This document shows, one piece after another, positions 1,076 through 16,841 of a stretch of 64,000 bases of DNA; within the stretch, counting starts at the first letter, position 1, and each line of letters opens with the position of its first letter. Origin of the DNA: Armatimonadota bacterium (lineage in GTDB: Bacteria; Armatimonadota; SYMT01). Below the pieces are notes generated by a model. That model was not told the DNA's origin, did no database searches, and saw only the letters and a list, made by a program, of their open reading frames with translations. Made by a program: the position numbers and the translations under genes. The DNA lies in NCBI GenBank assembly GCA_046292385.1, contig JBKBRF010000015.1:70726-134725 (forward strand). The letters are read 5' to 3'.

Positions 1076-2659
1076 GTGGGACCGCTTCTCGCACCAGACG
1101 AACACCTCAGCCCTGCGATGGAAGAGCTCCTCATCCGGTTCCTGAATCACATCACGGCGCTGCAAAGGAAGCTCTCCCAGCGACACCCCGACTTGTGCGC
1201 CGGGGAGATCCAGGTCGGCCTGGCTGTACGCCCAGGGACAGACAAGGCTACCGGACCAGTTGCACTCGACCGGTCGGCCCAGGATCGGCACCTCTACCTG
1301 TTGGGGGCCTCTGGGTCGGGGAAGAGCCGGCTCTTGGAGCTCCTAGTCCGGCAACTGATCCGGCGGGGCGAGGGCTTCTGCCTCGTGGACCCGCACGGCG
1401 ATCTCACGACCAACATTCTCACCTATCTCTACGATCGGAAGCACCGGCACTCCTCGGGTTTGGCCGTTGATGACTCGCGAGTTCACCTCATCGAGCCGTT
1501 CCGCGAGGAAGCCGTGGTTGGGTTGAACGCGCTCGATCCCGGGGGCGCCCCCCTCCATCCGCACATCGGTCAGCTAGTGAGCATCCTTCGCCGGTTCTGG
1601 TCCGGCTCCTGGGGCCCCCGGATGGAGGAATTGCTTCGGACTGGCCTGTTGACGCTCGCGTCCTGCAAACCGCCGCTCACCTTGGTAGAACTGGTTCCGC
1701 TCCTGGTCGACGCAGAATTCCGGGCTCGAGTCCTCACAACTGTCGATGATGATGCGGTGAGAGCCTACTGGCACTGTCGCTACGATCCGCTCTCCGGTGG
1801 CGGGCGGCTGGCGATGTCAGAGCCCGTGCTCAACAAGGTCGGTGCACTCCTGGCCGACCCGCGAGTACGCGGAATGCTTGGACGCCGGGAGACAGGTTTG
1901 GATCTCCGGCGCCTGATGGACGCGGGCGGCTGGGTCCTCTTCAATTGCTCGCGCGGCCAGCTCCGGGACGCTTCGTATCTCCTCGGCTCGTTCCTCGTCG
2001 CCCAGATCCAGGCTGCCGCCCTCTCGCGGGCCGCAGTTTCCGAAGCCGACCGGCGGCCCTTCACGCTACTGGTGGACGAGTTCCAGCACTTCCGGGCGGA
2101 TGATTTTACGGAGATCCTCTGCGAGGCGCGCAAGTACCGGCTTCGGCTGGTGATGGCGCACCAGAACCTCTCACAGCTGGAGGCGCCGCTCCAGCAGGCG
2201 ATCTTCAGCAACGCCGGAACTCACATCATCTTCGCGGTCTCCGCTCAGGACGCGGCGGCGGTCATCAAGCAGTCTCCGGAAGGGGTGATCGGCGTCGAGC
2301 AGCTCATCCACCAGCCGGTCGGGCACGCGTTCTTCTTCCGGCGAGGTCATCTCCCCGTCCGCACCCGTATCTTCCCGGTCGAGATCCCGGCGATTGCACC
2401 AGCCGAACTTGCCGTCTACGCGAGAGAGCTGGCGACCCGCCACGGGGTGCCGCTGAAGGAGGTCGAAGTCGAAATCCGGCAGCGCGCAGGGGGCGCGGCC
2501 CCTGGACCCGATCCGGTTCCGGCAGCACCTTCGCCGCCGCCACCAAAGGGGAAACGGCGCCGGAAGGAAGCGGCTGGGGCGCCGCCTCAGCCGACCCCTT
2601 CAAGCCCTGCTGCTGGGTCCGAAGGTTCTGCACCGATCAAGGAGGCACCGGATGACTGA
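1076..2659 (+). CDS. TraD/TrwB/VirD4-like coupling ATPase (FtsK-HerA superfamily); start may be ATG 1118
   Basis: RHLYLLGASGSGKS Walker A, LLVDEFQHF Walker B, EARKYRLRLVMAHQNLSQL motif; Pro-rich C-tail. Confidence 0.8.
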   Translation: MGPLLAPDEHLSPAMEELLIRFLNHITALQRKLSQRHPDLCAGEIQVGLAVRPGTDKATGPVALDRSAQDRHLYLLGASGSGKSRLLELLVRQLIRRGEGFCLVDPHGDLTTNILTYLYDRKHRHSSGLAVDDSRVHLIEPFREEAVVGLNALDPGGAPLHPHIGQLVSILRRFWSGSWGPRMEELLRTGLLTLASCKPPLTLVELVPLLVDAEFRARVLTTVDDDAVRAYWHCRYDPLSGGGRLAMSEPVLNKVGALLADPRVRGMLGRRETGLDLRRLMDAGGWVLFNCSRGQLRDASYLLGSFLVAQIQAAALSRAAVSEADRRPFTLLVDEFQHFRADDFTEILCEARKYRLRLVMAHQNLSQLEAPLQQAIFSNAGTHIIFAVSAQDAAAVIKQSPEGVIGVEQLIHQPVGHAFFFRRGHLPVRTRIFPVEIPAIAPAELAVYARELATRHGVPLKEVEVEIRQRAGGAAPGPDPVPAAPSPPPPKGKRRRKEAAGAPPQPTPSSPAAGSEGSAPIKEAPDD

Positions 2660-3494
2660 ACGCCGCTCGCGATTCTCAAGGACCGTCGTCGTTCCTGGAA
2701 CCGTGCTCACCGAGCGGGACGCGGCGCTGATCCTCGCCTGTTACCGGCACCAGTGGCTCACCCGGCAGCAGCTGCAGCTTCTCTTCGGGATGGGGGTCAC
2801 GCGGATCAACCAGCGCCTGCGGCAGCTCTACGATTCTCGGTTCCTCGACCGGCTGCGCGCAGGCACGGTGGGAGTGGGGATGCAGCCAGTCTACGTCGCG
2901 GCCGAAGCCGCGGTGCCCCTCCTCAGCCGCAGCACCGATCTCCCGGAAGCCCAGATCCGGGAGCACCTGCGAGAAGACGCCAGGGCCAGCGCCGTTCTCC
3001 TGCCGCACGACCTTCAGGTCAACGACGTGCGGATCGCCCTCACCCGGGCGATCGACGGACACCCCGGACTTCGCCTCGATCTCTGGCTCAACACCCGGGA
3101 GTCGTATGATGCATTCGCTCCCGGACGAGTGCTTCGTCCGGATGGCTACTTCCGATTCTGGCAGGGAGACGTACTCTTCTCGTTCTACCTGGAAGTGGAT
3201 CGAGGGACGTGCAACTTGCCCCGCTGGGAAGCCAAAGTGGAGCGGTATCAGGAGTACCGGGAAGATGGTCACTACACCGCTCGCCACGGGCTCTCCCGGT
3301 TCCGGGTGCTGGTGGCCGCTCCCAGCGCCGCCCGCCTGGAGAACCTCCGCGCGGCGACCGCGAAGGTGGTCAGCCGCAGCTTCTGGTTCGCGCTCACCGG
3401 AGAGCTGGGCGCCATCGCCGGTGTCGCCGCGCCGATCTGGCTGCCCCTCTCTGGCACGGCTCCCCGGCCTCTGATCGAGTCTTCAGGAGAGTGA
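2652..3494 (+). CDS. Replication-relaxation (Replic_Relax) family protein
   Basis: LTERD..IL...HQWLTRQQL N-terminus, PHDLQVND, RPDGYF, FYLEVDRGT motifs; overlaps the ATPase stop. Confidence 0.8.
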   Translation: MTERRSRFSRTVVVPGTVLTERDAALILACYRHQWLTRQQLQLLFGMGVTRINQRLRQLYDSRFLDRLRAGTVGVGMQPVYVAAEAAVPLLSRSTDLPEAQIREHLREDARASAVLLPHDLQVNDVRIALTRAIDGHPGLRLDLWLNTRESYDAFAPGRVLRPDGYFRFWQGDVLFSFYLEVDRGTCNLPRWEAKVERYQEYREDGHYTARHGLSRFRVLVAAPSAARLENLRAATAKVVSRSFWFALTGELGAIAGVAAPIWLPLSGTAPRPLIESSGE

Positions 3495-3496
3495 GG

Positions 3497-3931
3497 ATGC
3501 CCTGGTACTGCGGGTACTGCAGCGCCTGGAACAAGAGCACGCACCGGGTATGCCCGAGCTGCGGGCGCCCGGCGAAAGGGCGGCTCTGCCGGCGCTGCCG
3601 CGCGGACGTGCCGAAGGACGCGAGCTACTGCACCAATTGCGGCAGCTCTCGCCTGACCGAGGCTGCGGTCCGCAAGCTGCCGCTGCCCACCACGCTCCCT
3701 TTGCGCCTCGCGCTTCTGGCTGGCATCCTGCTCCTCCTCTGGTTAGCCATCCACCTGCTGCGGTGGGTGCTACACGGCGCGCTCAGTTTCGCCGCGCACG
3801 CCCTTGTCTGGGTCGTGGTCGCGTGGCTCCTGACCGGCATCCTGCCCCGGCCGTGGGGAGCGAAGGCGCGCGGAGCGGTCTGGACGACGCTGAAGTACTC
3901 GGTCGAGTTCCTCCGCAACCTGTTCAGCTAG
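3497..3931 (+). CDS. Double zinc-ribbon membrane protein
   Basis: Four CxxC pairs (CGYC, CPSC, CRRC, CTNC), then two hydrophobic segments; ATG 3497 after a purine-rich RBS. Confidence 0.7.
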   Translation: MPWYCGYCSAWNKSTHRVCPSCGRPAKGRLCRRCRADVPKDASYCTNCGSSRLTEAAVRKLPLPTTLPLRLALLAGILLLLWLAIHLLRWVLHGALSFAAHALVWVVVAWLLTGILPRPWGAKARGAVWTTLKYSVEFLRNLFS

Positions 3932-4241
3932 CGGCAGGAGGGGCAGTGACACCCCTTGCAATGGCCCGTGCACCGCTGCGCGTATCCGTTACTAGACGCT
4001 GCAGGCACGGGCGCGTGCCTGTACTTCGGGGAGAGTGTCGCTGTGGCTTCGTCGCAGCATCGGCCCGCTCCATCACCTTCCAACGTCGATCTTCCCGCTG
4101 TTGTCCTCTTTGCCAATCCTCCACCGGCCGGCCGGTGATCTACTGGACCCCATGGCCGCCGGACGTCATCCTGACAACGGGACTTGCACCGCGGCGGCCC
4201 AAGATGCGACGGATGGAGCCGCGGACCTGCCGGAGCGGGCG

Positions 4242-5207
4242 ATGAAACGTGAACTGACCCTTTCCCAGGCTATCGAGGCCTATTCCCTGCACCAGGCGGC
4301 GCGGGGCGACTCGGAGACCCACCGCAAGGAGTGCCGTCGGACCCTCGGAGCCTTCGTCTCCTGCTGTGGTGACTTGCCGGCCGCAGGGGTGAGGCCGGAC
4401 GAGCTGCGTGTCTTCATGAACGAGCTGCGGTCCCGGCCCGGGTTAGGCGGCAGAGAGCGGCTTTCCGATCTCACCCTGGCGGCTTACCACCGGGTGCTGG
4501 CCGCCTTCTTCCGGTTCCTGGAGACGGAGGGGCACGTCGAGGCGAGTCCGATGCGGGCCGTGCCCAGGCCGAAGACGCGCCTGCAGCTGATCCGGCCGTT
4601 CTCCGAAGAGCAGCTACGGCGCCTCATTGCGCAGCCGGACCCCGCGAGCTTCATCGGGCTGCGGGACCGCACCCTGATGGTGTTCCTCGCCGACACCGGC
4701 TGCCGGATCTCCGAGTGCCTGGGGATCACCTACACCGATCTCGATCTGGACGCCCGCACCGTCCGCGTGCTCGGCAAGGGAGCCCGGGAGCGAATGGTCC
4801 CCTTCGGGGAGCGGACCCGGCAGTGGCTCGAAGCCTACCTGGCGCGGCGCCGGGAGAGCGAGCTGTCCGACCGGATCTTCGTCAACGAGTTTGGCGAGCC
4901 GCTGACTCGCGGCACGGTCGCCCGGCGGTTCGCCGGGTACGGCCGTCAGGCGGGGATCCGCGGCGTCAGAGTGAGTCCTCACACGTTTAGGCATACCTTC
5001 GCGGTGCAGTGGTTGCTGGGCAGCGGCGATTACAAGGGCGACGCCCTCTCGCTTCAACGCATCCTGGGTCACTCCACCCCGGCAATGACCCAGCGGTACG
5101 TCCACCTGACGAGCGGCGATCTCGGGAGACTTCACGCGAGGCTTTCACCCGCAGACAAATTGTCGGAGGCGCCCCCGCAGGTGGGTCGACGGCGGCGTCT
5201 CCGCTAA
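4242..5207 (+). CDS. Tyrosine recombinase/integrase (XerC/D-like)
   Basis: DTGCRISE, VLGKG, HTFRHTFA, LGHS...MTQRY catalytic R-K-H-R-H-Y set. Confidence 0.93.
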   Translation: MKRELTLSQAIEAYSLHQAARGDSETHRKECRRTLGAFVSCCGDLPAAGVRPDELRVFMNELRSRPGLGGRERLSDLTLAAYHRVLAAFFRFLETEGHVEASPMRAVPRPKTRLQLIRPFSEEQLRRLIAQPDPASFIGLRDRTLMVFLADTGCRISECLGITYTDLDLDARTVRVLGKGARERMVPFGERTRQWLEAYLARRRESELSDRIFVNEFGEPLTRGTVARRFAGYGRQAGIRGVRVSPHTFRHTFAVQWLLGSGDYKGDALSLQRILGHSTPAMTQRYVHLTSGDLGRLHARLSPADKLSEAPPQVGRRRRLR

Positions 5208-5809
5208 CCGATAGTCACCGGCCTCTACGGGAACCGACCTATTCATTCTGGGAGGACGCCAGGGAGCTCTTCGCGAATCAGTCAGTAGCTGGCACCCCGC
5301 GATTGCCGCACCTAGCTCTTGGCCGGGTAGAGTTCGCGCCAGCCAGCCGAGGGAAAACAGTCGAAGGGATTGTCCGGTCCTTCACGCATCCGCTGCCGCA
5401 CGCGCGGATGAATGTCGGTCCCTCCCGCCCCGGCGAAGTGCGGCATCCGTCCGCCACGGGAGGGCGCGACCAGAATCTCATTGAGCTTCTCATCCGGGGT
5501 AATCACTTTCCATCGACGACCCGCCAGGATGGCTGGACTCAAAGTGGGGGACGAGGAAAGGTGCTCGTCTTCGATGCCACGTCCTAGGGGGAGATCGGTC
5601 AGGCGTACCTCCGCATGTTCGGAGCGATGCCGGAGGCAGAGGCCTGGCCGCGCGCTTTCGCGGCAAAGCCCAAGAGAAATACGACGGCTTTCTGTCAGAG
5701 GCACTACAAGCTCAGGAGATTGCGCGGAACAGCCTCGACCTTCCGGGAGCCGCTGACCTAATCGCTACCCTAACACGTGATACGTGAAATAGACGCCCCC
5801 GGAGAAACG

Positions 5810-6526
5810 ATGACAAACTCAAGGAAGGCGGTCGTTCTGCTGAGCGGTGGGCTGGACTCGACGACCACTCTCGCGATCGCTCGGCAGCTAGGCTATGAAC
5901 TGTACGCTCTGACCTTCTATTATGGCCAGCGCCATGGATCCGAGATCGAGGCGGCCCGAGAGATCGCTCGCCGATACAGCGTTGCCGAACACGTGGTCGT
6001 CGAGATTGACCTACGCCTCTTTGGCGGATCGGCGCTGACAAGTGAACTCGAGGTCCCCAAGGGGCGTGCGCTGTGGGAGATCGGAGAGGGAGTCCCGGTG
6101 ACGTACGTGCCTGCCCGCAACACGATCTTTCTCTCCTACGCCCTCGCGTGGGCGGAGACTCTGGGTTCCAGCGACATCTTCATGGGCGTGAACACCCTTG
6201 ATTACAGCGGCTATCCGGACTGCCGACCCGAGTATGTGGCGGCCTTCCAGCATATGGCTAACCTCGCCACCCGGGCTGGAGTGGAGGGACGGCAGGAACT
6301 TCAGATCCACACGCCGCTGATCCATCTCAGCAAAGCCGAGATCGTCCGCAAAGGCGTTGAACTCGGGGTTGACTACGGCCTGACCCGTACCTGCTACGAT
6401 CCCTCTCCTCAAGGCGATGCGTGCGGGGCTTGCGATGCGTGTCTCCTGCGCCTTAAGGGGTTCGCCGAGAATGGCATGAACGATCCGGCACCCTACGCCG
6501 GCGCACTAGTTCCCGCATCCGCCTGA
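5810..6526 (+). CDS. queC: 7-cyano-7-deazaguanine (preQ0) synthase
   Basis: [10 protein letters not shown]-loop, [26 protein letters not shown]...CGACDAC Zn site. Confidence 0.96.
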
Positions 6527-7638
6527 GGCTGCTGTCCTTGGGCTGGGATACATGAGGTTGGGCCTCCCAGCGTCTCCGCCACCCGCTCAACCAGCGGCAA
6601 GTAGATGGAATTGTCCAGCCGGTCGCGGTAGTTCGCCTCGTACGTGCCTGCTGCGATCTGCTGGTCGATCCACTCCGCCTCTTGAAGCAGTACCCATAGG
6701 TTATGGGTGGCGCGGTGGCAGAATCCGGGTAGCTTGTCTGCCTTCAGGCCATCCACCCCGTGCTGCTGGCAGGGTGGGCAGACGCACTCAGCAAGCAGGT
6801 CCCACTCTCTCTCGTTGGGTTTACGCCCGCGCCAGCTTCCCATCTCGACTAGGGTGCGGTCGCCGCTTCCCGGCAACTGCACGATCCCGCGAGCCGCGCG
6901 GTTGCGCCAGCCGCAAGAATCGGCTGAATCGAACCCCAGTAAGGCGGCCAGGTGGAGGGTGGCGGTGCCACCTATGCCGAAGACGTGCAGTTGCTTGCCG
7001 GCCAGGACCTTCCGTGTATCTCCGAGCCCTTGAATCACCGCATCATATGCCATCGCCTTCTTGGCGCGGAGCAGGTTCGGCACGATGGCACCGAGAGCGA
7101 CATCCCCCTTGCGTGCGAGGTTCTCGTCCCCAAGTAGCTGCTCCAGGTACTCAGCGAGCAGAGGGCTGATGTGGATCACCGGAGCATAGCCGTCGTGTTC
7201 ATGCTGCCGGTTCATGGCCATCGTCTTGGTCAGACACTGCTTCTGCTCCTCATCACTCATGCTGGGGAGCGGGATAAAATCCTGGGCGATCGGCTTCCAA
7301 TCCGGCCCCGCCGCCTCGACAAAGCGCTGGTACTGCTCCACGTCCGTGGTTAGGCCCTTGGAAGAGAGATTGAATGCCCCGTTATCTAGAAAGATAGCCA
7401 CGCCCTTCGGCACGCCAAGGAAGTCGCGCAGGCCCTCCTTCATCGCTTGCTGTCGTTTCGGGGAATCGATATGCTCCGGCTCCTGATCTGGCTGGGTGGG
7501 TCGTGTTTGGTTGCGGGGAAACTCCGCATAGGAGACCATCAGAGCCTTCAGTGCCTCCAGAAAGTACGGCGAGTCTGGATCCCATACGGGCGGATGGAGG
7601 TTTCTGAGACTCAGCCCGGCGACGACCTGGATGCCCAC
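6493..7638 (-). CDS. Guanine transglycosylase-family (TGT/DpdA-like) protein
   Basis: FLDNGAF, QDFIP, LHVFGIG, FDSADS motifs, CVCPPC...HNL Zn site; GTG start overlaps the HerA stop by 1 nt. Confidence 0.8.
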
Positions 7639-9431
7639 TACCGCCGCCCCTCGGCGTTCAACTGCTCTCGCGCCTCCTCAAGAGCGACGAACGCGTCCGT
7701 CTCCTCGTGCTCTCCTTGCGACTGGGGCTGCTTGATACGCACTAAGACGGGGAAGTTAATGAACTGGCCCGACAGGAGCGCCTCTCCCACGTCCAGGTCA
7801 GGGAGCATCTTGGCGTCCTCCGCGCCAAGACTCTCAATCGACTTGCGAACAAAGGATTGATCATCGGGGTTCACCATCCGCATGATGATGAACGAGTTGC
7901 ACTGCGACAGGGTGGTCTCATCCAGCCGAGATGGGCGCTGACTGATCATCACCAGGCCGACACCAAACTTGCGTCCCTCCTGGGCGATTTGCTTGGTCGT
8001 GGTGATCGCTTGCTGCTCCGCTGCCGAGGCAGCCCGCGCTGGGGCGAAGTTGTGAGCTTCCTCTAGGACAAGTAGCACAGGCAACTTCAGATCGCCAGCA
8101 ACCCGGGCGCTGAAGATGGCGTCCGCAACGAGGCTGTAGATTGTCGCCTGAAAGTCGTCCGTATAGCCGGCAAGCGCGACGATGCTGATGCCTCCATATC
8201 GCACCAGATCAGTCCGATTTACCGGAAGCGGATTACTGTTCCGAGACACACGGCGGCTGATCTCTTCCATCTGCCGTAGCCGTTTCGCTCCACGCCTCAG
8301 GTTATTTGGGAAGCTCTCCAGCCAACCACCGGTCTGTCGGTTGATGCGCAGTTGCTCCCGTCCGCTCCATTCAATGAGCCGGTCCTTCGCGTCGGAATCG
8401 TCGGTCCGGGCCGCCTTGGCAACGGCTTGCACGAAATCGGCTAGAAAGTACAGATTGGGGCTCGGGCGGTACTGCTTGATGCGATCGTTCCCGAGATACT
8501 CGCTGAGCCAGATGGTGCGCTCCTCCAGCGCAGCGGCATCACCGATGAATGCTTTGGCACCCTGGAATAGGTCATCGAAAAGGCTGCGGTGGGTATTAGC
8601 CATCTGCCATCCCAACGCCTCGATAACTGAGGCAGCCGTTTCCGGTGCTTGCTCGAAGATTGGGAGTTGCGCGAAGTAACGCTGAACTCGCTGTGCGATT
8701 GCGGGAACATCCGCGAGTCCTGTGTAGTCGCCGTGGGGATCGAAGATCACCATCGGGTAGTTCTTCGCCGCCAACTGCTCGATGACCCGGCGAGCCGTCA
8801 CGCTTTTGCCGGCGCCAGTCATCGCTAGAATCGCTAGGTGCCGCGTGACGACTGCATGCCCGTCCACGCACACATCAACCTCGGGCCGGTTGGAGAGCGT
8901 GGCGACGTCGAGCGCCCTCGAAGTGTGCAGTCGCAGATCTCCCAGAACAACCCGAGCAATGTCTTCCGAGGCCGGACGGTAGGCACTGCTGGCGGGCTGT
9001 GGTGGGTAGCGAAGGTGATCAAGCCTCCCCCGACTCGATCCCTCGCATGGTTCGCTCCCCAACACCTGACAGACAGCGGTCACCATCTCGCGGCTCAGCG
9101 AGAGTACAGTGTCGAAGGGGTCCGTGCGCGTCGCTGCTAACTCATGTCCTGCTTCGGCGGGAAACAGAGGATTGAGCCGTTCGATGCGCTGGACCTTCGC
9201 CCAAACGCGGATAGTGGTTCCGGTGTCGCCGTCACCGACCTGACGCAATGTGGCGTCAACCGCAATGATGTCCTGCTCCTTGACCGCCTCGTGCGCGATC
9301 GCCAGTCTGAACTCGCGACTGGTGCTCTCACCGACAAGCGTTCCGACATACCGGTTGTTTTCTTCGTGCACTGGTTCCCTGGCCATGTGTGTGTCTGTAG
9401 CCGTTTCTAAGCTTCCGGGCGAAAGAGCCAA
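7638..9431 (-). CDS. herA: HerA-like helicase/ATPase (copy 1; start may be ATG 9386)
   Basis: N-terminal HAS-barrel-like region, HLAILAMTGAGKS, IFDPHGDY, LEEAHNFAP, EGRKFGVGLVMISQRPS, NPDDQ. Confidence 0.88.
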   Translation of the reverse strand: MALSPGSLETATDTHMAREPVHEENNRYVGTLVGESTSREFRLAIAHEAVKEQDIIAVDATLRQVGDGDTGTTIRVWAKVQRIERLNPLFPAEAGHELAATRTDPFDTVLSLSREMVTAVCQVLGSEPCEGSSRGRLDHLRYPPQPASSAYRPASEDIARVVLGDLRLHTSRALDVATLSNRPEVDVCVDGHAVVTRHLAILAMTGAGKSVTARRVIEQLAAKNYPMVIFDPHGDYTGLADVPAIAQRVQRYFAQLPIFEQAPETAASVIEALGWQMANTHRSLFDDLFQGAKAFIGDAAALEERTIWLSEYLGNDRIKQYRPSPNLYFLADFVQAVAKAARTDDSDAKDRLIEWSGREQLRINRQTGGWLESFPNNLRRGAKRLRQMEEISRRVSRNSNPLPVNRTDLVRYGGISIVALAGYTDDFQATIYSLVADAIFSARVAGDLKLPVLLVLEEAHNFAPARAASAAEQQAITTTKQIAQEGRKFGVGLVMISQRPSRLDETTLSQCNSFIIMRMVNPDDQSFVRKSIESLGAEDAKMLPDLDVGEALLSGQFINFPVLVRIKQPQSQGEHEETDAFVALEEAREQLNAEGRR

Positions 9432-10894
9432 TCCCGGTGCGTGATGTAGATCGCTTGGACCAGGATCCGGCGCATCTCCGCGTCACTCACGTCGCCGCGT
9501 TGGAGACTCACGCCAAGGTGGTACTTGATGAGCTTGCTGTAGGCATCGGTTAACCACGCTGGGACATGAGCGTATTTGTCAGCGGTGTCGAGACCCACGG
9601 GGAACCCATAGCCGGGGAGCAGCCGCGAGTAGAGATAGGCCCTGCGCGCTGCTTCGGTCACCTGATCCGTTCCCAGTTCCGGGAAGACCTCCACCCGTAT
9701 CGGGAGAGTGTTCTCCGATACCTGAACATAGCAGCCTTCCACCCGCGGAAAGCCAATCCGCCCCGGCCGGAGGGGGCTGAAGTCTACCCGGCTGGTCCCG
9801 GCTTCACCCGTGAGCGACACATCCCCGTGCCGGAGCCCGTCGTACTTGGGAATCTCCCAAGAGCTCGAGTATTCGCCCGTCCGAAGGAGCATGGCTAGCA
9901 AGAGCGCGTCCGTATACCCGAGCCGATCCAGCAACGCCTTGGGCGAGGTGAGATCCTTTCGCCCGTACATCTTGTTGAAGTAGTCGGCCTTTCCCAACTC
10001 GCGGAGCTTTCGGAACACGCGCTCCAGGAGGATCCGCTCCGAAAAGTCCCGCAGTTCCCCCCGTTCGACCACCCCCGCGATGATCGGGACAGGACGCCGA
10101 GAACGGGCGACGTGAATGAGCCGACGGTATAGGAACGCAATCCAAGCCAACGGTTCGAACAGTCTCCGGCGCGTCCACTCCTCGGCGCGATCCGTCATCC
10201 GTGGGTAAATGTCCAGATAGGCCTCCCGGAGAAACTCCTCCTTGAGCTGCTGCCCCGCGACGGGATCAGGGGCGTAGTGCTTAAGGAAGAGATCGACGTC
10301 GGCTTCGGTGAAGGGCGTGTGCCCGGCATAGCCACCCATCAGGTAGACGAGCGGCCCATGGTACATTAGGGCGCGGAGGTCCAGGTTTCGCTCGAGGGCC
10401 GACAATCCGCCTAATAGCTCCGCCGTGATCCGGACGATATCGACGAAGTCCTTTCGGGTCTTGCTCCCTCCCTCGAGGTCTCCCAGGATGACAGGGTAAT
10501 ATCCAAACTGCTCCCGCTCCTCCAGGCGGCGCTCACCAGTACGCACGCAATAGGACCCAACGCGCAGCAGGATTGGCACCTGACTGGATATCTGGACCCG
10601 TCCCACTCCGCCGTCGATGAAGGACACCACCTCGCCCTGCACGGAGCCCCAGCCTACCTCGCCGATCTGCTGGACCGGGAGCATTGGCTCAGCGGTACTC
10701 CCGCGGGCAGCGTTCTCAACGTCCCGGCGAAGGGCAGTGATGAATCGGGCGGTGTTCCGGAAGTAGTTGTCCCGAAGGCTCTCCGCCACGGTGAGCGCAT
10801 TCTCGGCCAGCCGGAACATTAGATGCGGCTGGCGCTGGAGGTCTTCCCTGACGCCGTCTTCCGTCAGTCGACGATCGCTGTGCGGATCACTCAT
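9407..10894 (-). CDS. nurA: NurA-like nuclease (copy 1, divergent active-site motifs)
   Basis: SFIDGG, YHGPL, GVVER, GYGFPVGLDTADKYA; directly upstream of HerA; ATGA overlap with the upstream gene. Confidence 0.7.
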   Translation of the reverse strand: MSDPHSDRRLTEDGVREDLQRQPHLMFRLAENALTVAESLRDNYFRNTARFITALRRDVENAARGSTAEPMLPVQQIGEVGWGSVQGEVVSFIDGGVGRVQISSQVPILLRVGSYCVRTGERRLEEREQFGYYPVILGDLEGGSKTRKDFVDIVRITAELLGGLSALERNLDLRALMYHGPLVYLMGGYAGHTPFTEADVDLFLKHYAPDPVAGQQLKEEFLREAYLDIYPRMTDRAEEWTRRRLFEPLAWIAFLYRRLIHVARSRRPVPIIAGVVERGELRDFSERILLERVFRKLRELGKADYFNKMYGRKDLTSPKALLDRLGYTDALLLAMLLRTGEYSSSWEIPKYDGLRHGDVSLTGEAGTSRVDFSPLRPGRIGFPRVEGCYVQVSENTLPIRVEVFPELGTDQVTEAARRAYLYSRLLPGYGFPVGLDTADKYAHVPAWLTDAYSKLIKYHLGVSLQRGDVSDAEMRRILVQAIYITHRDWLFRPEA

Positions 10895-11628
10895 GGCCGC
10901 CGCACCTCTAGGCCGAGTTGAACGAGCAACCGGCGGGCGTCGTCGGAGTGGAAAGCACTCACCGGGAGGCCGGTGATCCGGCTGACCAGCCACTTTGGCG
11001 CGACCCGCATCCCGTCGATTTCCACACACCACCCCTGAAAGCGTGCTGCTCCGGCGGGATCCTCTTGCAGCCCCGCTCCGGCCGCAGCCGAGACGAGATT
11101 CGGATTCCTGCTGACGTACACTCCCCGGAAGCGGATCGTGTCCGCCGCTGAGTCTACTCTCACCGTGGGAGGAACCGGCGCCCTGCCGTGGAGCCAGTCG
11201 TGAAGCATCGACAATCTTCTTCCGGAGGAGCCGGTCAGAATGCGCACTGGCACCCCGGTTGAGGCTACCGGGAATCCGGTCAGTGCGTCGAGGTAGAACT
11301 TTCCGACCGCGACACAGACCTCGTTCACCTCTTGCTCAACCACTACACGCTCAAGGGTCTCCACCGTCGTCCGCTGGAGTTCGTGGGCGCGATGGCGAGT
11401 CATCGTTCGATCGTACCACGGGATCAGCTTGTCTGCCGGGATCAAACCGAACTCCGCGGAGAGAATGTATAGCGCTGGTCGCCCGGTGCCGCCTGCACGT
11501 ATACCCTCGCGCAGGAATCGACGGACAAGGCGGAAGGATGGCCCGTCGTATCGCTCGACGGCCGGCAGGAGCGCTGTGTCAAGCCGCTTGCGTTCGCTAC
11601 ATCCAAGGATCAGGGCAGAGCCAGGCAT
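10891..11628 (-). CDS. DUF6884/YaaA-like protein with extra small C-terminal domain
   Basis: LILGCSERK, PAVERYDGPSF, YILSAEFGLI, IPWYDRTM; C-terminal VEIDG...PKWLVS..TG...FHSDDARRLL..LG; GAGGA RBS before ATG 11628. Confidence 0.7.
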   Translation of the reverse strand: MPGSALILGCSERKRLDTALLPAVERYDGPSFRLVRRFLREGIRAGGTGRPALYILSAEFGLIPADKLIPWYDRTMTRHRAHELQRTTVETLERVVVEQEVNEVCVAVGKFYLDALTGFPVASTGVPVRILTGSSGRRLSMLHDWLHGRAPVPPTVRVDSAADTIRFRGVYVSRNPNLVSAAAGAGLQEDPAGAARFQGWCVEIDGMRVAPKWLVSRITGLPVSAFHSDDARRLLVQLGLEVRRP

Positions 11629-11828
11629 CGAATCCTCTTGGCCAGACAGCAGGATTGTCGGCGTGAAACCGATCGCTCGTTTCTTCTGGGAGCAAAGGGG
11701 CCAGGGGGCTCCTCGGCGCACAACAAAAGAAATGGGCCGAGCGTGTAACACCCTGGCCCCTTCGCGACCATTCCGTAGTGGGGCCGACCAGGTGGCCCGT
11801 TTCAGGTCGTTGAGCGAGACAACTCCCG

Positions 11829-12467
11829 ATGCGTCCGCCATCCCTTCAAGAGCCGGATCTGAAGAGCGACACCCTCTCCCATGCGATCGAGCAGGAGATG
11901 TCCTCGCTCATGGCCGGCATTCGGGTCCTGGTGTCGCGTTCCGGCCTGGCGACAGGCGCGGCAGAGATCGAGTCTCTGGCCGAAGACACCTTTCAGGATG
12001 TCGTCCTCAAAGTGATGGCCCACCGGAACGCCTACAATGAGGGGCGTCCGCTCCGTCCCTGGTTCATGAAGTTCGTCGTGAACCATCTCAAGAACCTGCG
12101 CGGCAGCAGGAAGCGTCGGAGCGCCACGGTGACACCCGTTGCCGAGACCCGCCGAGTTCGAGCGGCGCTTGCCACGTCCGAGGTGGGCGCAGACGATCTC
12201 TCAGAAGCCGAGATGTTCGACCTGCTCGCGCAAGGGTGCGGCTCGCAGCCCCCCGGGGACGCGGGCTGGAACATGCTGATTTCCCTAGCGCTGGAGCGGG
12301 ATCGGGAGATCCTGACGATGCGGTTCCGGTATGGGTTGGAGTATGCGGAGATCGGGCAGGCGCTGGAGATCACCGCCGGGACAGCCCGCACGCGCGTCTG
12401 CCGCGTCCTGGAGCGCCTGCGTCAGGCCTACCGGGAGAGCGAGCGCTTCGCGGGAGGAGGGTCCTGA
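11829..12467 (+). CDS. ECF-type sigma-70 factor
   Basis: Region 2 AEDTFQDVVLK...LRPWF; region 4 DREILTMRFRYGLEYAEIGQALEITAGTARTR. Confidence 0.88.
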   Translation: MRPPSLQEPDLKSDTLSHAIEQEMSSLMAGIRVLVSRSGLATGAAEIESLAEDTFQDVVLKVMAHRNAYNEGRPLRPWFMKFVVNHLKNLRGSRKRRSATVTPVAETRRVRAALATSEVGADDLSEAEMFDLLAQGCGSQPPGDAGWNMLISLALERDREILTMRFRYGLEYAEIGQALEITAGTARTRVCRVLERLRQAYRESERFAGGGS

Positions 12468-12468
12468 G

Positions 12469-13080
12469 ATGCACAAGCCGATGGATGCAGATACGCTCCG
12501 ACGTGAGCGGCTTGCCTACCGGTACGTCCGTGCGCTGGACCGGGGGGACCTCGAGGACGTCGAGGCGGTTCTAGAGGCGGCGATGGACGATCCGCTGCTT
12601 TCCCATGCGCTTTCCGAGATTGACCTCGCCTATCAGGACGAGCTATCCCTGGTTCCAGCTCCTGCAGACGTACGATTGGTACGAGAGCTGCTGCGAAAAC
12701 ACTTCAATAGCGCCGGCTCGGATGAGGCTGAAGAGGAGTTAGCGGAAGAGCCGCTGACTGTGAGCGATGTAGCCGTGCGCCTGCAGCACGAGAAGCGCGT
12801 CCCTGCCGGAGATCGTGAGGCCAACCGGCGTCTCCTTGGCAGCCATCTCGTGGTCCCGGGCTTTCTGAATTTAGAGGCCGTCCGACAGCTTGCGCGGGAA
12901 ACCGGTGTGGAGGCCAGCGAGCGCTTCTGGCGGCTCTTCCGAGAGACGGCCATCATGCTGGGCATCGGCCGCAGCCATCAGCAATCGCAAATGGCAGCGG
13001 CGCGGGAGCAGCGGCATAAGTCACAAGCAGCGAAGCCACCGTCGCAGTTGAGGTCCCAGTGCGAGGAGATACAGGAATGA
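12469..13080 (+). CDS. Uncharacterised soluble protein in the anti-sigma position
   Basis: GGAGG RBS, starts 1 nt after the sigma stop, ATGA overlap with the next gene; no obvious TM segment. Confidence 0.75.
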   Translation: MHKPMDADTLRRERLAYRYVRALDRGDLEDVEAVLEAAMDDPLLSHALSEIDLAYQDELSLVPAPADVRLVRELLRKHFNSAGSDEAEEELAEEPLTVSDVAVRLQHEKRVPAGDREANRRLLGSHLVVPGFLNLEAVRQLARETGVEASERFWRLFRETAIMLGIGRSHQQSQMAAAREQRHKSQAAKPPSQLRSQCEEIQE

Positions 13081-13868
13081 GTCAAACTCTCGGCTCGCAG
13101 CCTCGGTGCCGCCGGATCGCCGACGCCATTCACTGCGTGTATGCCGATGCGGGCCTCGCCCCGACCGCCGGGCGCCCGGGTGCCACTCGGCTGATTGTGC
13201 CGTTGTACGAGCTGATCAACGCCTACCCTCTGCGGGTCGCGGAGATCCGCAATCTGACCTATGGGTCCGCCCGAGAGTTCCTGCTAACGGAAACCCAGCA
13301 GGAAGTGCCGGTTCCCGAGAACAGCGGATGCCCCCTGGCCGGTTTTCTATACATCTATCGCTACGCCGGGTTCTTCTACGGATGCGTGCTCCTGGAGCAA
13401 GGGGACCCTGTATCCAGACGGCGGTTCTCCGCGGCGCATGAACTCGGGCACTACCTGCTGCACTTCCTGCCGCTGCTCCGGGAGTTGGAAGGCCAGGCGG
13501 CACGCCCCTGCGTCATCACGGAAGGGCTCGCCGTGTCAGCAGACCCGGATGCTGCACCACCAGTGGGTGAGGTTCGGTTCACAGAGTCCTTTGGGGCTGC
13601 AGCGACACAGCCCGTTCTTGACCGAGAGGTCATGGAGGACGAAGCCAACGAGTTCGCCGCGGAACTGCTGATGCCGGAACCGGCCGTCCGGCTGATGGCG
13701 GATCGCTATCGTCGCGAAACCGGGGCGCGGCGCCAAGTGTTGGCGCGGCGGCTGGCACCCGAGTTCCTGGTGAGCCGCCAGGCAATGATCCGGCGGCTCG
13801 AGACACTGGGACTACCCACGGCCCAGCGTGTGCCGGGAACCGTCGGTTCGGGGCTGGCGGGAGAGTGA
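13077..13868 (+). CDS. ImmA/IrrE-family Zn metallopeptidase
   Basis: RRRFSAAHELGHYLLH (HExxH), EDEANEFAAELLMP, C-terminal HTH-like LAPEFLVSRQAMIRRL. Confidence 0.92.
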   Translation: MSQTLGSQPRCRRIADAIHCVYADAGLAPTAGRPGATRLIVPLYELINAYPLRVAEIRNLTYGSAREFLLTETQQEVPVPENSGCPLAGFLYIYRYAGFFYGCVLLEQGDPVSRRRFSAAHELGHYLLHFLPLLRELEGQAARPCVITEGLAVSADPDAAPPVGEVRFTESFGAAATQPVLDREVMEDEANEFAAELLMPEPAVRLMADRYRRETGARRQVLARRLAPEFLVSRQAMIRRLETLGLPTAQRVPGTVGSGLAGE

Positions 13869-13872
13869 CGCG

Positions 13873-14916
13873 ATGGGCCTGAGCGACTTCATTCAGAACT
13901 ACGGCGGTCGTCGGGTAGACGAATATGCTCAGCAGCCATCTCTTGAGGGGGAGCCTGCTGACGACAGCGAAGAGCCCGAGGATGCCGAAGGTCTGGACTA
14001 CGAGGTTCCGCGCGAGGATTGGGACGCGGTGGACCTCGACCTGCCGGACGGCTGGAGGGTGGGCGACTGGGACGACCGCCCGATCCGCTTCGTCGACGGG
14101 AAGGACATAGGGGAGACCGTCGCGTGGCTATGCGCTCCGGGTGGCTATCCCGTGCCGGTGCGGCTCTCGCAGATCGGCGGAGTGGTGGTTCGGCTGATCA
14201 ATGGCGAGTGCCGACGCGAGTTCGTGGTCGTGGACAAGGTTGTTTCGATGGTGGCGGACCTCTTTCCGTGGGATGAGGTCGAGAGTTTCGCTGCCGAGCT
14301 TCAGGAGAACGGCTTCCGCCTTCTTCCGGCGCAGCCACCAGAAAACCGCCCTTCCTATGGTTTTGAGAAGATGCGTAAGGCAGCCCAGAACCGCTCGAAC
14401 GACGAGATGGGGGTCCTCGAGGAGGCGGTCTTGGCGCAGGACCCGGGTGTGCCCACCATCGTGGATGGCCGCCTCGAGCCCCGCATCGGGGGTTTCGATC
14501 CGCACGAGCCGGTTTTCGGAGTGGTGAAGCGGCACCACAAGAACTACCTCCATCCGGTAGGCATGCAGCTTCTGTATCAGTTGGAGCCAGGCCAGCGAAC
14601 CCCAGTGTTCCGACTGCCTGGTCGCTTGGAAGTGGTCTCCTGGTACGTGCGCCTCGCCGGCGGTGCCGGGTCGATGCCGAACTGGGGCCTGGTTCGGGTG
14701 GAGGCACCGCGGCTGTGGTTTGAACGGCGGGCAAGGGACTGGAGCCTGGTGGACCGGCTTTCGCACACGCTTCGCGAATACCGCTGCCGCGACGCCAGCT
14801 ATGCGCGAGCGCCCGTTTCTCTCCATCCGATTGTGCGTGCGGAGGAGAGTCTTGGGTCTCTGTTCCATCCAGGCAGCTTGCTGACCCATCGGTTCTACCG
14901 ACTGACAGCTCTGTAG
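13873..14916 (+). CDS. nurA: NurA-like nuclease (copy 2)
   Basis: RFVDG, IVDGRL, GVVKRH, SWYVRL, RAPVSLHPIVRAEESL; upstream of a HerA-like ATPase. Confidence 0.75.
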   Translation: MGLSDFIQNYGGRRVDEYAQQPSLEGEPADDSEEPEDAEGLDYEVPREDWDAVDLDLPDGWRVGDWDDRPIRFVDGKDIGETVAWLCAPGGYPVPVRLSQIGGVVVRLINGECRREFVVVDKVVSMVADLFPWDEVESFAAELQENGFRLLPAQPPENRPSYGFEKMRKAAQNRSNDEMGVLEEAVLAQDPGVPTIVDGRLEPRIGGFDPHEPVFGVVKRHHKNYLHPVGMQLLYQLEPGQRTPVFRLPGRLEVVSWYVRLAGGAGSMPNWGLVRVEAPRLWFERRARDWSLVDRLSHTLREYRCRDASYARAPVSLHPIVRAEESLGSLFHPGSLLTHRFYRLTAL

Positions 14917-14927
14917 ACGCGAGGAGG

Positions 14928-16841
14928 ATGACGATGAGCGAAGAAGTGCACGTCCAGACGCTGGATACGGTGGATGGGGATTTCCGCAATGACGGTCGCT
15001 CGGACAACACCGGACAGGCTGCCGGAATGCCTGAGGAAGCCGCTGGAGGCCCCACGATCATAGTCCAGGCAGGCACCCATGAGATCGGGAAGGTCGCCTC
15101 ACCCCCGCAGCGGGAGTCGACGCCGGACCAATTCTACTTCTGGATTGACCGCGAAGAACTGGTCGAGCGGACCCAGATCGTCCGTACGCAGAGCCGGGTG
15201 GGCGGCCAGGAGATCGACTTCTACGGCATCGTGGATGAAGTGTACCGTCAGAGCCGCAGGCGGAGCATCGGGGAAGAGGCGGACGTATCCGATCAGGATG
15301 TCTCGTACGATCCTCCGTTCGCCGGGGAAGGCGTCACCTTCGCTCAGGCCAGCATCCTCCGTGCGGAGCCGCCGGTCCTGACCCCACCGCGCGAGCAGAG
15401 CCGCGTGTACCTCGGAGGCGAGTTTGAGGCACGCCTAGCCTACGGAGCCGATGAGATCGAGAATCCGCTTCCGGTAGGGCTGGTGAAGAACGGTGGGAGC
15501 GTAGTGGCAGGTCCTGGAGTAATCGACCTGGACTACCTGCTCGGCGTGAACGGCGGACACATGAACGTGAACGGAGTAGCAGGGCGCGGGACGAAGTCCA
15601 GCTTCCTCCTCTTCACCATCGCTATGCTGCTCCGCGAGGTGCGACAGCGCGCCGCGGAGGCGCCGTCCGATCCGAACCCGCTGCTGGTAGTGCCGATCGT
15701 GCTTAACGTGAAAGGCTACGACCTTTTCTACATCGACCGCTGGAGCCGCCGTTACGATCCTGATCGGGATCTGGCGGATTGGAGAGCGCTTGGCGTGCAG
15801 ACCCCGGTCCCGTTCCAGGGAGTCGAGTTCTACGCTCCCCAGCAGCCCGGTAACACGACGCCCGTGCCAATCCAAGGGAGGGGTGATGTCCAAGCGTATA
15901 GCTGGAGCCTGTCAGATGTCATCGAGAGCGGTCTGCTTCTCTATCTCTTTTCGGACGAGGACAGCCGGGATGCCAACTTCAGTGCCCTCGTGCTGGACAT
16001 CGAGGAGCGTCTGACGGTGGAGACGCCGCAGCCAGATGGGACACTCCGGCGGCGACTTCGCGAGGAGGGACTTCCAGCTACGTTTCAGGAGTTGCTGGAT
16101 TGGGTCGCCGGGCCCGGACAGAGCCTGCTCGGAGGTCACCACGCTGGGACTTGGGGGAAGCTGCGCCGCCGCCTCGTGAAGTTGGTGATCGAAGGAGATG
16201 GGGTCCTGCGGCGCAATGACCGTACCGGCAACCCCCTGGCCGTGGCCCGGCGGGAGACGTGCGATCCGATTGTGGTGGACCTGAATGCACTCACGCGGGT
16301 GCCGTCGCTCCAGCGGTTCGTGGTTGCAACGATCTTACGGCAGCTGGTCGACGCCCGCACCGGGCCGAACGCGGTCCGTGGATTGGTCTATGTGGTCGCC
16401 CTCGACGAACTGAATCGATTCGCTCCGCGGGGCTCGCGCGACCCGATCACCCAATTGATCGAGCAGGTCGCGGCCGAGATGCGTTCCCAGGGAATCATCT
16501 TGCTGGGCGCGCAGCAGCAGGCCTCGAAGGTCTCTGAGCGGGTCATCGAAAACGCCAGCATCCGTGTTCTGGGCCGCAGTGGAAGCCTGGAGCTCTCCCA
16601 GCCGGTGTGGAGCTACCTCAGCAAGAGCGGACGCCGAAAGGCTGAGACGCTGAGCGTGGACGAGAAGCTCGTTCTTCAGGACAACTTCCGCGAGCCGATG
16701 CACGTGCGTGTTCCGTTTCCGTCCTGGGCGATGAACCCGCGCGAGACTGCGCCGACGCCTGCTGACTCTGCGACTCCAGCGCTGCCTCCCGGTCCAATCG
16801 GCGAGAGCGCTCAGGCGGAAGACGACATCGAGACGTTCTAA
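14928..16841 (+). CDS. herA: HerA-like ATPase (copy 2, bacterial GxxGxxTKS type)
   Basis: N-terminal HAS-like barrel, HMNVNGVAGRGTKSS, NVKGYDL, LDELNRFAP, RSQGIILLGAQQ. Confidence 0.82.
   Translation: MTMSEEVHVQTLDTVDGDFRNDGRSDNTGQAAGMPEEAAGGPTIIVQAGTHEIGKVASPPQRESTPDQFYFWIDREELVERTQIVRTQSRVGGQEIDFYGIVDEVYRQSRRRSIGEEADVSDQDVSYDPPFAGEGVTFAQASILRAEPPVLTPPREQSRVYLGGEFEARLAYGADEIENPLPVGLVKNGGSVVAGPGVIDLDYLLGVNGGHMNVNGVAGRGTKSSFLLFTIAMLLREVRQRAAEAPSDPNPLLVVPIVLNVKGYDLFYIDRWSRRYDPDRDLADWRALGVQTPVPFQGVEFYAPQQPGNTTPVPIQGRGDVQAYSWSLSDVIESGLLLYLFSDEDSRDANFSALVLDIEERLTVETPQPDGTLRRRLREEGLPATFQELLDWVAGPGQSLLGGHHAGTWGKLRRRLVKLVIEGDGVLRRNDRTGNPLAVARRETCDPIVVDLNALTRVPSLQRFVVATILRQLVDARTGPNAVRGLVYVVALDELNRFAPRGSRDPITQLIEQVAAEMRSQGIILLGAQQQASKVSERVIENASIRVLGRSGSLELSQPVWSYLSKSGRRKAETLSVDEKLVLQDNFREPMHVRVPFPSWAMNPRETAPTPADSATPALPPGPIGESAQAEDDIETF

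Follow-up and report, generated by a model that had tools for sequence, protein, structure and literature searches.

What would a guanine transglycosylase act on if its gene is transcribed together with those of a DNA translocase and a nuclease? This question is raised by a locus of an Armatimonadota bacterium (GTDB lineage SYMT01) that lies in a stretch of 64,000 nucleotides (assembly GCA_046292385.1, contig JBKBRF010000015.1, positions 70,726 to 134,725 of the forward strand), which we refer to in its entirety as the window. Four genes on its minus strand form an operon, here called the cassette, transcribed in the order DUF6884 protein, NurA-type nuclease, HerA-type ATPase and an enzyme that resembles tRNA-guanine transglycosylases (TGTs); a gene for QueC, the synthase of 7-cyano-7-deazaguanine (preQ0), faces the last of them. 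Judging from sequence and from analogy with the known Dpd system, we consider it on balance probable that these genes encode a Dpd-like system, which would modify DNA with a 7-deazaguanine and restrict DNA that does not carry the mark.

The initial annotation of this locus had described a 381-residue enzyme with a DNGAF motif and a zinc site, translationally coupled to HerA and facing a canonical queC. The positions given were correct: the open reading frame (ORF) has DNGAF at residues 85–89 and the zinc motif CxCx2Cx21H at C285, C287, C290 and H312. Also as described, the stop codon of the HerA gene overlaps the start of the TGT-like gene in the sequence TAGTG, and queC, whose product scores above the TIGR00364 cut-off, is convergent with the TGT-like gene, the 3' ends of the two overlapping by 34 nt (6493–6526). 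The QueC ORF spans 5777–6526 on the plus strand, and the start at 5810 is an internal ATG (M12). The statement that no other que or dpd gene is present was wrong, as a gene of the DpdC family opens the same operon. This gene is joined to that of NurA by an ATGA overlap of stop and start, and the suggestion that HerA and NurA replace DpdC does not hold either.

The transglycosylase and its DpdC-family partner

The TGT-like protein matched the TGT family PF01702 over residues 199–341 only (29.5 bits, cut-off 26.3). It has the TIM-barrel fold, the two catalytic aspartates, the base-binding aspartate and the CxCxxC...H zinc site of the TGT superfamily. In all 32 aligned members of its family, D85, N86, G87, F89, D240 and the four zinc ligands were invariant, and D120 was conserved in at least 90% of them. 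H156 is likewise invariant; it aligns with His181 of DpdA, at a position occupied by Gln169 in the archaeal TGT (arcTGT). A G(G/A)IVP segment is present, as in arcTGT and DpdA. The active-site residues Asp95, Phe99, Asp130, His181 and Asp256 of DpdA (Salmonella Montevideo numbering) are matched by D85, F89, D120, H156 and D240, according to a profile alignment to the DpdA structure 7ui4 and a BLASTP comparison with a bona fide DpdA; the offset of 20 between chain and native numbering was counted by hand. The roles of these DpdA residues are those given in PMC10164549. The predicted active site is DpdA-like in having DxGAF and a histidine where TGTs have glutamine, in agreement with the initial annotation, which had placed DNGAF closer to DpdA than to the TGTs that act on tRNA.

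When the 32-member profile was compared with the PDB, two matches were obtained at E ≤ 1, arcTGT (1iq8, E 2.8e-9) and DpdA (7ui4, E 1.2e-4), and no bacterial TGT was matched at this threshold. The best VIA-align match of the AlphaFold2 model (pLDDT, the predicted local confidence, 85.5) was arcTGT, with Z 29.0 and a root-mean-square deviation (rmsd) of 2.5 Å over 309 residues, covering positions 21–378 of its 577; Foldseek placed DpdA at rank 47 (TMq 0.57). From the alignment coverage and the length of 381 residues, the C-terminal C1–C3/PUA tRNA-binding domains of arcTGT have no counterpart, and the modelled fold is that of the arcTGT catalytic core without these domains. The large Ins8 insertion specific to DpdA, a four-helix bundle, is missing too: 45 residues separate D240 from C285, against about 112 between Asp256 and Cys368 in DpdA, and the gap in the BLASTP alignment is consistent with this.

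The resemblance to arcTGT, the closest curated model and the closest solved fold, could be read as indicating a transglycosylase of tRNA or another RNA, for instance a paralog that inserts preQ0 at a new tRNA position and merely resides in an operon of DNA enzymes. The automatic JGI name, '7-cyano-7-deazaguanine tRNA-ribosyltransferase', points in the same direction. We find such a function highly improbable, given that the arcTGT tRNA-binding domains are absent, that the conserved partners all act on DNA, that the host and 15 of the 16 carriers tested also possess a canonical tgt, and that DxGAF and the histidine are of the DpdA type.

The enzyme is not the housekeeping Tgt of its host, as a canonical tgt (524 bits) lies on another contig and BLASTP between the two proteins gave nothing significant (E 1.1). 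With the bona fide DpdA of a carrier genome, BLASTP gave 25% identity over 199 residues (E 3e-6), and a further segment aligned across the zinc site. A tree of 46 rows placed the TGT-like family and its nearer representatives in one clade (support 99/97), from which 18 short arcTGT-like proteins were separate. The phylogeny called for by the initial annotation yielded a clade set apart from arcTGT-like proteins but not its sister group, the references being a single DpdA and a single bacterial Tgt, without a true arcTGT; DpdA and Tgt formed long branches (5.07 and 6.32) without a settled placement, and hence no sister group is named. As judged by these comparisons, the enzyme is a member of the TGT superfamily that forms a clade of its own and belongs to none of the curated families.

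The protein encoded by the first gene of the cassette matched DUF6884 above the cut-off of PF21818. This family is described as distantly related to YaaA, a DNA-binding protein, and as having CxxxK and LSAxxG motifs (PMC11701544); in its list of dpd island domains, a genome-mining preprint gives 'DUF6884, e.g., dpdC' (10.1101/2025.02.24.639861). In a 2026 paper, DpdC is termed DUF328/PF03883, the family of YaaA itself (PMC12839542); these are related families, both of which were matched by one protein from the cassettes. Both motifs occur in the protein of the window, where, numbering from M72 of the long ORF, C10, K14, L56 and S57 were invariant and G61 was conserved in at least 90% of 28 sequences. 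When the model of its N-terminal domain (pLDDT 88.1) was compared with 48,161 chains using VIA-align, YaaA ranked first (5caj, Z 9.6, rmsd 3.4 Å, 142 residues), followed by AF0587 (Z 9.3) and then by unrelated rows at Z 7.0. Foldseek returned no match for the DUF6884 model at E ≤ 0.001, YaaA being at rank 20 (E 0.037). We regard the protein as a predicted DpdC-family enzyme, not a demonstrated DpdC ortholog, and the pairing of DpdA-like and DpdC-like enzymes appears to be kept in the cassette.

A C-terminal domain of about 85 residues (window 10891–11190, minus strand; approximately residues 160–245) is also conserved in the DUF6884 proteins of the cassettes, with invariant W200, K212 and W213 and the motif PKWLVS...LTGLPVS.F. 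It had no Pfam match at E ≤ 0.5 and may bind DNA or a partner protein.

Partners of the transglycosylase across phyla

Related loci were reached with an alignment query, the single-protein query having found none in the genome contigs. In a set with one genome per species, 110 stretches contained a relative; the best 80 of the 110 were kept, and all ORFs of these 80 loci and of the window were clustered, so that the counts below include the window (loci and genomes are denoted L and G). The TGT gene was present in all 81 loci, DUF6884 in 56, HerA in 51 (plus 6 in which it is cut at contig ends) and NurA in 36, while a second NurA type, with weak PF09376 matches (16.6–19.8 bits), was found in 15. 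A module of other nucleases and ATPases, also present in the window, was represented by NurA2 in 12 loci, SbcD in 11 and HerA2 in 10; its sigma factor accompanied it in 5 loci and the conserved protein X in 10.

Gene order was counted where the sequence upstream of the TGT gene extends for at least 4.5 kb, which is so in 56 loci. An ATPase/nuclease set lies beside the TGT gene in 54 of them, and DUF6884 in 50. The order DUF6884-NurA-HerA-TGT was the most frequent (29 loci), followed by DUF6884-HerA'-NurA'-TGT (13), the NurA2-HerA2-SbcD-SbcC module without the cassette (7), cassette and module together (3) and DUF6884-Z1 domain ATPase-TGT (2; PF10593, 79–85 bits). Two loci had none of these arrangements: L021, with an AIPR protein downstream, and L054, with a split TGT gene. 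Gaps of a few nucleotides separate the cassette genes in most loci, and in some the cassette is free-standing among unrelated genes (e.g., L062 and L078). The link of HerA and NurA to the TGT-like enzyme, noted in the initial annotation from the window, is therefore conserved across phyla. A DNA ATPase/nuclease set thus accompanies the TGT gene in nearly every case, but it is not the same set throughout; the partners seem to be swapped, as in the effector modules of restriction-like systems.

In locus L054, from a Calothrix metagenome-assembled genome (MAG), the TGT-like gene is distributed over two ORFs of 111 and 219 residues (L054:9001–10026) beside a 246-nt fragment of SbcC. The system seems to be decaying in this locus.

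The HerA proteins of the cassettes have Walker A and B motifs together with HerA domains, and the NurA proteins a NurA domain with the catalytic aspartate motif. Walker A (G206–S210) and Walker B (L456–H460) of HerA were at least 95% conserved among 38 sequences, as was the IDGG motif of NurA, including D140, among 35. A predicted complex of HerA with the TGT-like enzyme scored 0.01 against a mark of 0.32, a result that gives no answer and counts neither way.

These partners could also serve modification only. HerA, with NurA, would then be an ATP-driven loader that opens DNA or presents it to the transglycosylase, as DpdB does for DpdA, the system would have no restriction arm, and the mark would shield the DNA of the island or the host against other nucleases or act in epigenetic control. 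DpdA does require the DpdB ATPase for insertion (PMC10164549), no DpdB/ParB-like gene was seen in Pfam scans of the window ORFs, and the overlap of the HerA and TGT genes and the free-standing cassettes agree with such a role; by analogy, HerA could stand in for DpdB. However, the partner is swappable (two HerA/NurA types in opposite order, the Z1 ATPase, the SbcCD module), and NurA keeps a nuclease motif that would be needless for a loader. The exchangeable sets fit a restriction module at least as well as a DpdB-like loader, and we regard modification without restriction as unlikely, although it deserves some weight.

The family extends well beyond these loci. Of the 8,000 candidates scored in a word-indexed protein search, 1,412 proteins reached E ≤ 1e-3, the best 120 being 51–70% identical; in a library clustered at 50%, 662 representatives passed the same threshold, 394 passed 1e-10 and 98 passed 1e-30. 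Thirteen sampled weaker relatives (about 370–540 residues) matched the arcTGT model with 35–124 bits. Carriers belong to the Chloroflexota, Cyanobacteria (two on plasmids), Planctomycetota-type bacteria, Acidobacteriota, Bacteroidota, Gemmatimonadota, Nitrospirota and Pseudomonadota, and include Heliomicrobium genomes. No relative of the TGT-like enzyme was matched in 50,697 phage records, and one was matched among 72,556 plasmids, where the module genes are all annotated as 'hypothetical' or 'putative exonuclease'; in public annotation, the cassette genes are labelled 'hypothetical protein' or taken for a tRNA enzyme. Among 61 genomes related to the host (6 of the same family, 1 of the same order, 53 of the same phylum and the host itself), only the host has the system.

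The DpdA model matched the cassette enzyme in none of 40 carrier genomes (E ≤ 1e-10); it matched only true DpdA, in 3 of them. Two of these three DpdA matches, in G043 (L097/L101) and on contig 10 of G045 (L100/L102), are split over two frames and represent either frameshifted dpdA genes or assembly errors.

Possible sources of preQ0

QueC lies beside the cassette in four loci from four different groups, namely the window, L017, L045 and L056. It starts 47 nt past the TGT gene in L017 (PF06508, 206 bits), ends 120 nt before DUF6884 in L056 and lies 1.6 kb before DUF6884 in L045. The QueC proteins of these three loci are about 31–42% identical to that of the window, against 56–71% for QueCs of the same phylum, and QueC was therefore recruited separately each time. 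By a rough estimate, a single-copy gene of a 5,000-gene genome would be expected by chance within two genes of the site in about 0.07 cases per 81 loci.

Among 79 distinct carrier genomes (G040 was reached through two loci, and the unpublished genome G075 is included), 58 encode QueC at E ≤ 1e-20, and the other 21 comprise 20 Chloroflexota and 1 Acidobacteriota. A gene of the Vut_1/YhhQ family of preQ0 transporters (145 bits in the one scanned) adjoins the cassette in 13 loci, and this linkage occurs in 13 of the 21 genomes without QueC and in none of the 58 with it. A canonical bacterial tgt was found in 15 of the 16 QueC-less genomes tested, so these carriers must salvage deazaguanine bases. 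The linkage to QueC or YhhQ fits a 7-deazaguanine substrate and is the strongest argument for it. In locus L033, from a Chloroflexaceae MAG, a DUF366 gene (PF04017, 205 bits; L033:1654–2370, plus strand) lies between the TGT-like and YhhQ-family genes and may encode a further deazaguanine-related enzyme.

The same linkage bears on a type IV-like defence, in which the TGT-like enzyme would strip 7-deazaguanines from phage DNA and HerA–NurA would destroy the damaged DNA. Glycosylases directed against deazaguanine-modified phage DNA exist (10.1101/2025.10.29.685425), and TGT chemistry should in principle be reversible. For base removal alone, however, a linked preQ0 synthase or importer would be superfluous, as would a DpdC-family enzyme, and we give this explanation very little credence.

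In the host, whose assembly is 98.45% complete, canonical tgt is accompanied by queA (420 bits) and folE (249 bits). As had been noted at the outset, the window lacks folE, queD and queE; the search of the whole genome located only candidates on other contigs, the QueD-like and QueE-like genes falling below their cut-offs, and it found no QueF, no Vut_1 and no second QueC. The QueE-like gene (contig 56, L088:1420–2274) and the QueD-like gene (contig 48, L005:1447–1887) are kept in the family of the host, where QueC and QueF are absent. The QueC of the window is the only strong QueC of the genome. The only other PF06508 match is a 493-residue QatC-like protein (NF041925, 160.9 bits, cut-off 280; contig 24, L004:1090–2571, minus strand), whose gene adjoins one encoding a helix-turn-helix plus an M78 peptidase and is probably part of a Qat-type defence locus. 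Full-length QueC-like paralogs with low scores (83–97 bits, model positions 4–209) were also seen in G031, G043, G045, G050, G060 and G068, which are of Planctomycetota type, and are predicted to be a distinct QueC-like family.

Is this QueC then an ordinary queuosine gene, beside which the cassette was inserted by chance? That it is the only strong QueC of the genome, and 66–71% identical to QueCs of same-phylum genomes without the cassette, would agree with such an origin. Yet a full-length QueC was found in none of the 7 closest relatives (6 of the same family and 1 of the same order), compared with 14 of 23 other genomes of the phylum, and the same adjacency recurs in three other lineages. 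Moreover, preQ0 could not feed queuosine, since no QueF was found in the host, and QueC lies between the integrase and the cassette with the G+C content of the latter. We therefore gave chance insertion next to no weight. The absence of QueC from the relatives and its G+C content indicate that it is island cargo and not a housekeeping gene. The initial annotation had asked whether the genome has no other tgt or queC: this is so for a strong queC, which is cargo, but not for tgt. The island QueC may supply the missing step from the 7-carboxy-7-deazaguanine (CDG) of the host to preQ0, and this would account for queC being the only such gene to accompany the cassette.

The island, its second module and the proposed mechanism

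The features of the locus are collected in Table 1. The system occupies about 15 kb (5.8–21.2 kb) and is a horizontally acquired, accessory element. The first 27 kb of the window have a G+C content of about 61–65%, against 68–71% for the rest; values are 61.3% for QueC, 60–62% for the cassette (60–64% for the system) and 69.0% for the backbone. The integrase and relaxase genes adjoin the system on the left. No attachment-site repeat was found, one shared 16-mer being the only match between the left flank and the 20–33 kb region, and the sole tRNA gene of the window, at 54463, is far from the system.

Table 1. Positions of the cassette, the second module and neighbouring genes in the window
Feature	Position	Strand	Basis
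QueC, 7-cyano-7-deazaguanine (preQ0) synthase	5810..6526	+	PF06508 252.5 bits; TIGR00364 200.5 bits (cut-off 150.3)
Compact TGT-superfamily transglycosylase, 381 aa, proposed DNA guanine/preQ0 exchange enzyme	6493..7638	-	PF01702 match, motifs, fold
HerA-type hexameric DNA translocase ATPase, exact start uncertain	7638..9431	-	DUF87 82.8 bits; PADLOC HerA 203 bits
NurA-type nuclease, likely start ATG at 10894	9407..10894 (ORF 9407-11032)	-	PF09376 32.2 bits
DUF6884 protein, DpdC family, predicted YaaA-like fold and conserved C-terminal domain; likely start M72 of long ORF	10891..11628	-	PF21818 38.3 bits (cut-off 30)
Divergent intergenic region between cassette and sigma-factor module, presumed promoters	11629..11828	.	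ORF map
ECF-type (extracytoplasmic function) sigma factor, first gene of second module	11829..12467	+	Sigma70_r4_2 36.8 bits; TIGR02937 52.9 bits
Conserved protein X, no family match	12331..13080	+	no Pfam match
M78/IrrE-type metallopeptidase, CapP-like regulator	13059..13868	+	PF06114 55.2 bits; PADLOC capP 58.8 bits
NurA2, second, bacterial-type NurA-like protein	13828..14916	+	Atlas structure rows; FxDG invariant
HerA2, second, divergent HerA-like ATPase	14928..16841	+	Atlas DUF87/HerA cluster matches; hhalign to HerA1
SbcD/Mre11-type nuclease	16872..18107	+	TIGR00619 93.1 bits (cut-off 77.65)
SbcC/Rad50-type ATPase	18080..21244	+	TIGR00618 136 bits, under cut-off 478.5; Rad50 models 97-111 bits
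Left mobile-element genes: coupling-protein-like ATPase, Replic_Relax relaxase, tyrosine integrase	1076..5207	+	PF10412 45.1, PF13814 102.9, PF00589 123 bits

On the same contig (contig 15), about 10 kb to the left of the window, G+C falls sharply to 53.6% in a region with ORFs of 495 and 1254 residues (L103:10001–12000), where the stretch of low G+C sets in, and the island probably has its start there. The right end of this stretch holds a gene (21900–26666, minus strand) without a conserved counterpart in the 80 other loci; its 1588-residue product matches AAA_16/nSTAND1 weakly near residue 300 (E 0.002–0.018) and TPR repeats at its C terminus (TPR_END_plus, 44.8 bits).

The second module is transcribed away from the cassette. 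The assignment of NurA2 is based solely on Atlas structure rows, with TM scores of 0.72–0.79 to clusters in which 11–53% of the members carry PF09376; hhalign between the NurA2 and NurA1 families was not significant (probability 0.2). HerA2 aligned with HerA1 in hhalign at 76.7% (E 2e-5, 434 columns) and has conserved Walker A and B motifs. Protein X had no family match in Pfam scans. In addition to HerA and the M78 peptidase (Table 1), PADLOC defence models matched as mad8/mad3.

This set of enzymes could also belong to a DNA repair system that makes no deazaguanine mark, in which the TGT-like enzyme would act as a glycosylase on damaged guanines, the DUF6884 protein would bind the lesion or abasic site, HerA–NurA and SbcCD would resect, and QueC and YhhQ would be incidental. 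NurA–HerA and Mre11–Rad50 together form the archaeal end-resection set, and an M78/IrrE-type peptidase suggests control by DNA damage. YfjM, a DUF6884 member, has been reported as one of the proteins interacting with abasic and RNA-base lesions (PMC11701544). On this explanation, however, the adjacency of QueC in four lineages and the restriction of linked YhhQ to QueC-less genomes would be hard to account for, and the patchy distribution on islands and plasmids (1 of 61 relatives) is unlike that of core repair genes. We consider repair quite improbable.

Among the known systems, Dpd (dpdA–dpdK; Salmonella Montevideo) is a restriction-modification island whose 7-deazaguanine marks allow bacterial DNA to be distinguished from that of invaders. 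In it, DpdA and the DpdB ATPase insert preQ0, and DpdC then converts it to dADG, 2'-deoxy-7-amido-7-deazaguanosine (PMC10164549). The locus shares with Dpd a TGT-superfamily enzyme with DxGAF, three catalytic aspartates, a base-edge histidine and CxCx2Cx21-22H, a DUF6884/DpdC-family partner, genes for preQ0 synthesis or yhhQ in or beside the cluster, and location on islands. It differs in that the transglycosylase forms a separate clade and has no large Ins8 helical insertion, and in having HerA–NurA, a Z1 ATPase or NurA2-HerA2-SbcCD in place of DpdB and DpdD–K; neither the DpdB/ParB-like ATPase nor the DpdD–K helicases and PLD nuclease of Dpd were found in Pfam, NCBIfam and PADLOC scans of the ORFs at 1–26.7 kb. 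ArcTGT (TgtA), which uses preQ0, gave the best match among curated models, PDB sequences and folds, and it has a GGVVP-type pocket segment similar to that of the enzyme. The enzyme differs from it in having DNGAF where arcTGT has DSGSF and a histidine in place of glutamine on the edge of the base; its gene is bacterial and island-borne and belongs to an operon of DNA enzymes.

BREX-related capture (BRC), the nearest of the gene sets described in print, also combines a HerA/FtsK translocase and a GNAT protein with a TGT homologue, proposed to mark self DNA with a deazaguanine, and is described as having no DpdB (PMC12839542). The components that define it are PglZ, DUF6079 (BrxC-like), a STAND NTPase (BrxB-like) and DUF4007, and according to its authors it has no DpdC homologue (PMC12839542), whereas a DpdC-family gene and NurA are core parts of the cassette. 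PglZ, DUF6079 and DUF4007 were absent from the ORF scans of the window, a comparison that does not extend to the supplementary locus tables of that paper; as to the STAND NTPase, the 1588-residue protein gave the weak nSTAND1 matches mentioned above. The Walker and IDGG motifs, and the second NurA/HerA pair with SbcD and SbcC, are shared with HerA–NurA/Mre11–Rad50 resection and with HerA-based defence; unlike in these, HerA and NurA are constantly encoded in one operon with enzymes of base modification. No description of this gene combination was found in the literature searched, which left out subscription journals and supplements.

In the Dpd-like system that we favour, QueC would make preQ0 from CDG, which FolE and the QueD-like and QueE-like enzymes of the host core may supply; other hosts would obtain preQ0 from a housekeeping QueC or a cassette-linked YhhQ importer. 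The TGT-like enzyme would exchange guanine in DNA for preQ0 by the double-displacement chemistry of TGTs, with D240 as the nucleophile, D85 as the acid/base, D120 and H156 on the edge of the base, and the zinc site. The DUF6884 protein would flip out the modified base and turn it into dADG, the amide that DpdC makes, or into a different derivative. HerA–NurA would translocate along and cut DNA, as would the second module where present (in the window, NurA2-HerA2-SbcCD, presumably under a switch formed by the sigma factor and the M78 peptidase). Either set could be a restriction arm against unmarked DNA or an ATP-driven loader, as DpdB is in Dpd.

Several observations weigh against this reading. 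Each of its steps, from base exchange and modification to defence, is drawn for every member of the family from homology and gene context. The TGT-like protein fails the curated models of arcTGT (TIGR00432, 35.6 bits, cut-off 350), tgt_general (20.6 bits, cut-off 47.6) and DpdA (NF041059, 18.7 bits, cut-off 200), and the PADLOC models for DpdA (19.6 bits) and, on the DUF6884 protein, DpdC (20.8 and 16.7 bits) matched weakly. The nearest folds are those of tRNA enzymes, arcTGT being followed in VIA-align by QTRT1 (Z 26–28) and bacterial TGT (about 26), and DpdA is not among the best 50 matches listed. Several of the seven loci with the module only have no DUF6884. Carriers without QueC are themselves such a point: 8 of the 21 have no linked transporter (many are MAGs of unknown completeness), and 20 of the 21 belong to one phylum, so that the loci behind the YhhQ/QueC complementarity are not independent. 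In the host, the QueD-like PTPS protein scored 74.1 bits (cut-off 89.25) and the QueE-like radical SAM protein 67 bits, under all five QueE cut-offs (206–300); the latter gene is kept in 5 of 6 family relatives, which have no QueC, so that CDG from the host is a tentative part of the scheme.

More tentatively, and as a proposal that we stop short of calling probable, the locus may represent a widespread family of systems that write 7-deazaguanines into DNA and restrict DNA without them, present in at least 110 species-level genomes of many phyla and in about 1,400 protein clusters. In these systems, arcTGT-derived and DpdC-family enzymes would write the mark, and HerA–NurA, NurA2-HerA2-SbcCD or a Z1 ATPase would restrict; the DUF6884 protein, with its extra C-terminal domain, may make a derivative other than dADG. 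To date, 7-deazaguanines in bacterial DNA have been tied to Dpd and to phage DpdA enzymes. If the proposal is true, such DNA marks would be expected more widely, including in Chloroflexota, Cyanobacteria, Planctomycetota-type bacteria, Acidobacteriota and Bacteroidota. The existence of cultured carriers (Chlorogloeopsis fritschii PCC 6912, Calothrix sp. PCC 7103, Adhaeribacter aerolatus NBRC 106133 and Tolypothrix tenuis PCC 7101) makes this prediction directly testable by nucleoside mass spectrometry. The link to HerA–NurA or to Mre11–Rad50-like machines would then offer a simple four-gene system in which to study the coupling of a DNA transglycosylase to an ATP-driven motor, and it would hint at bacterial HerA–NurA having a new role.

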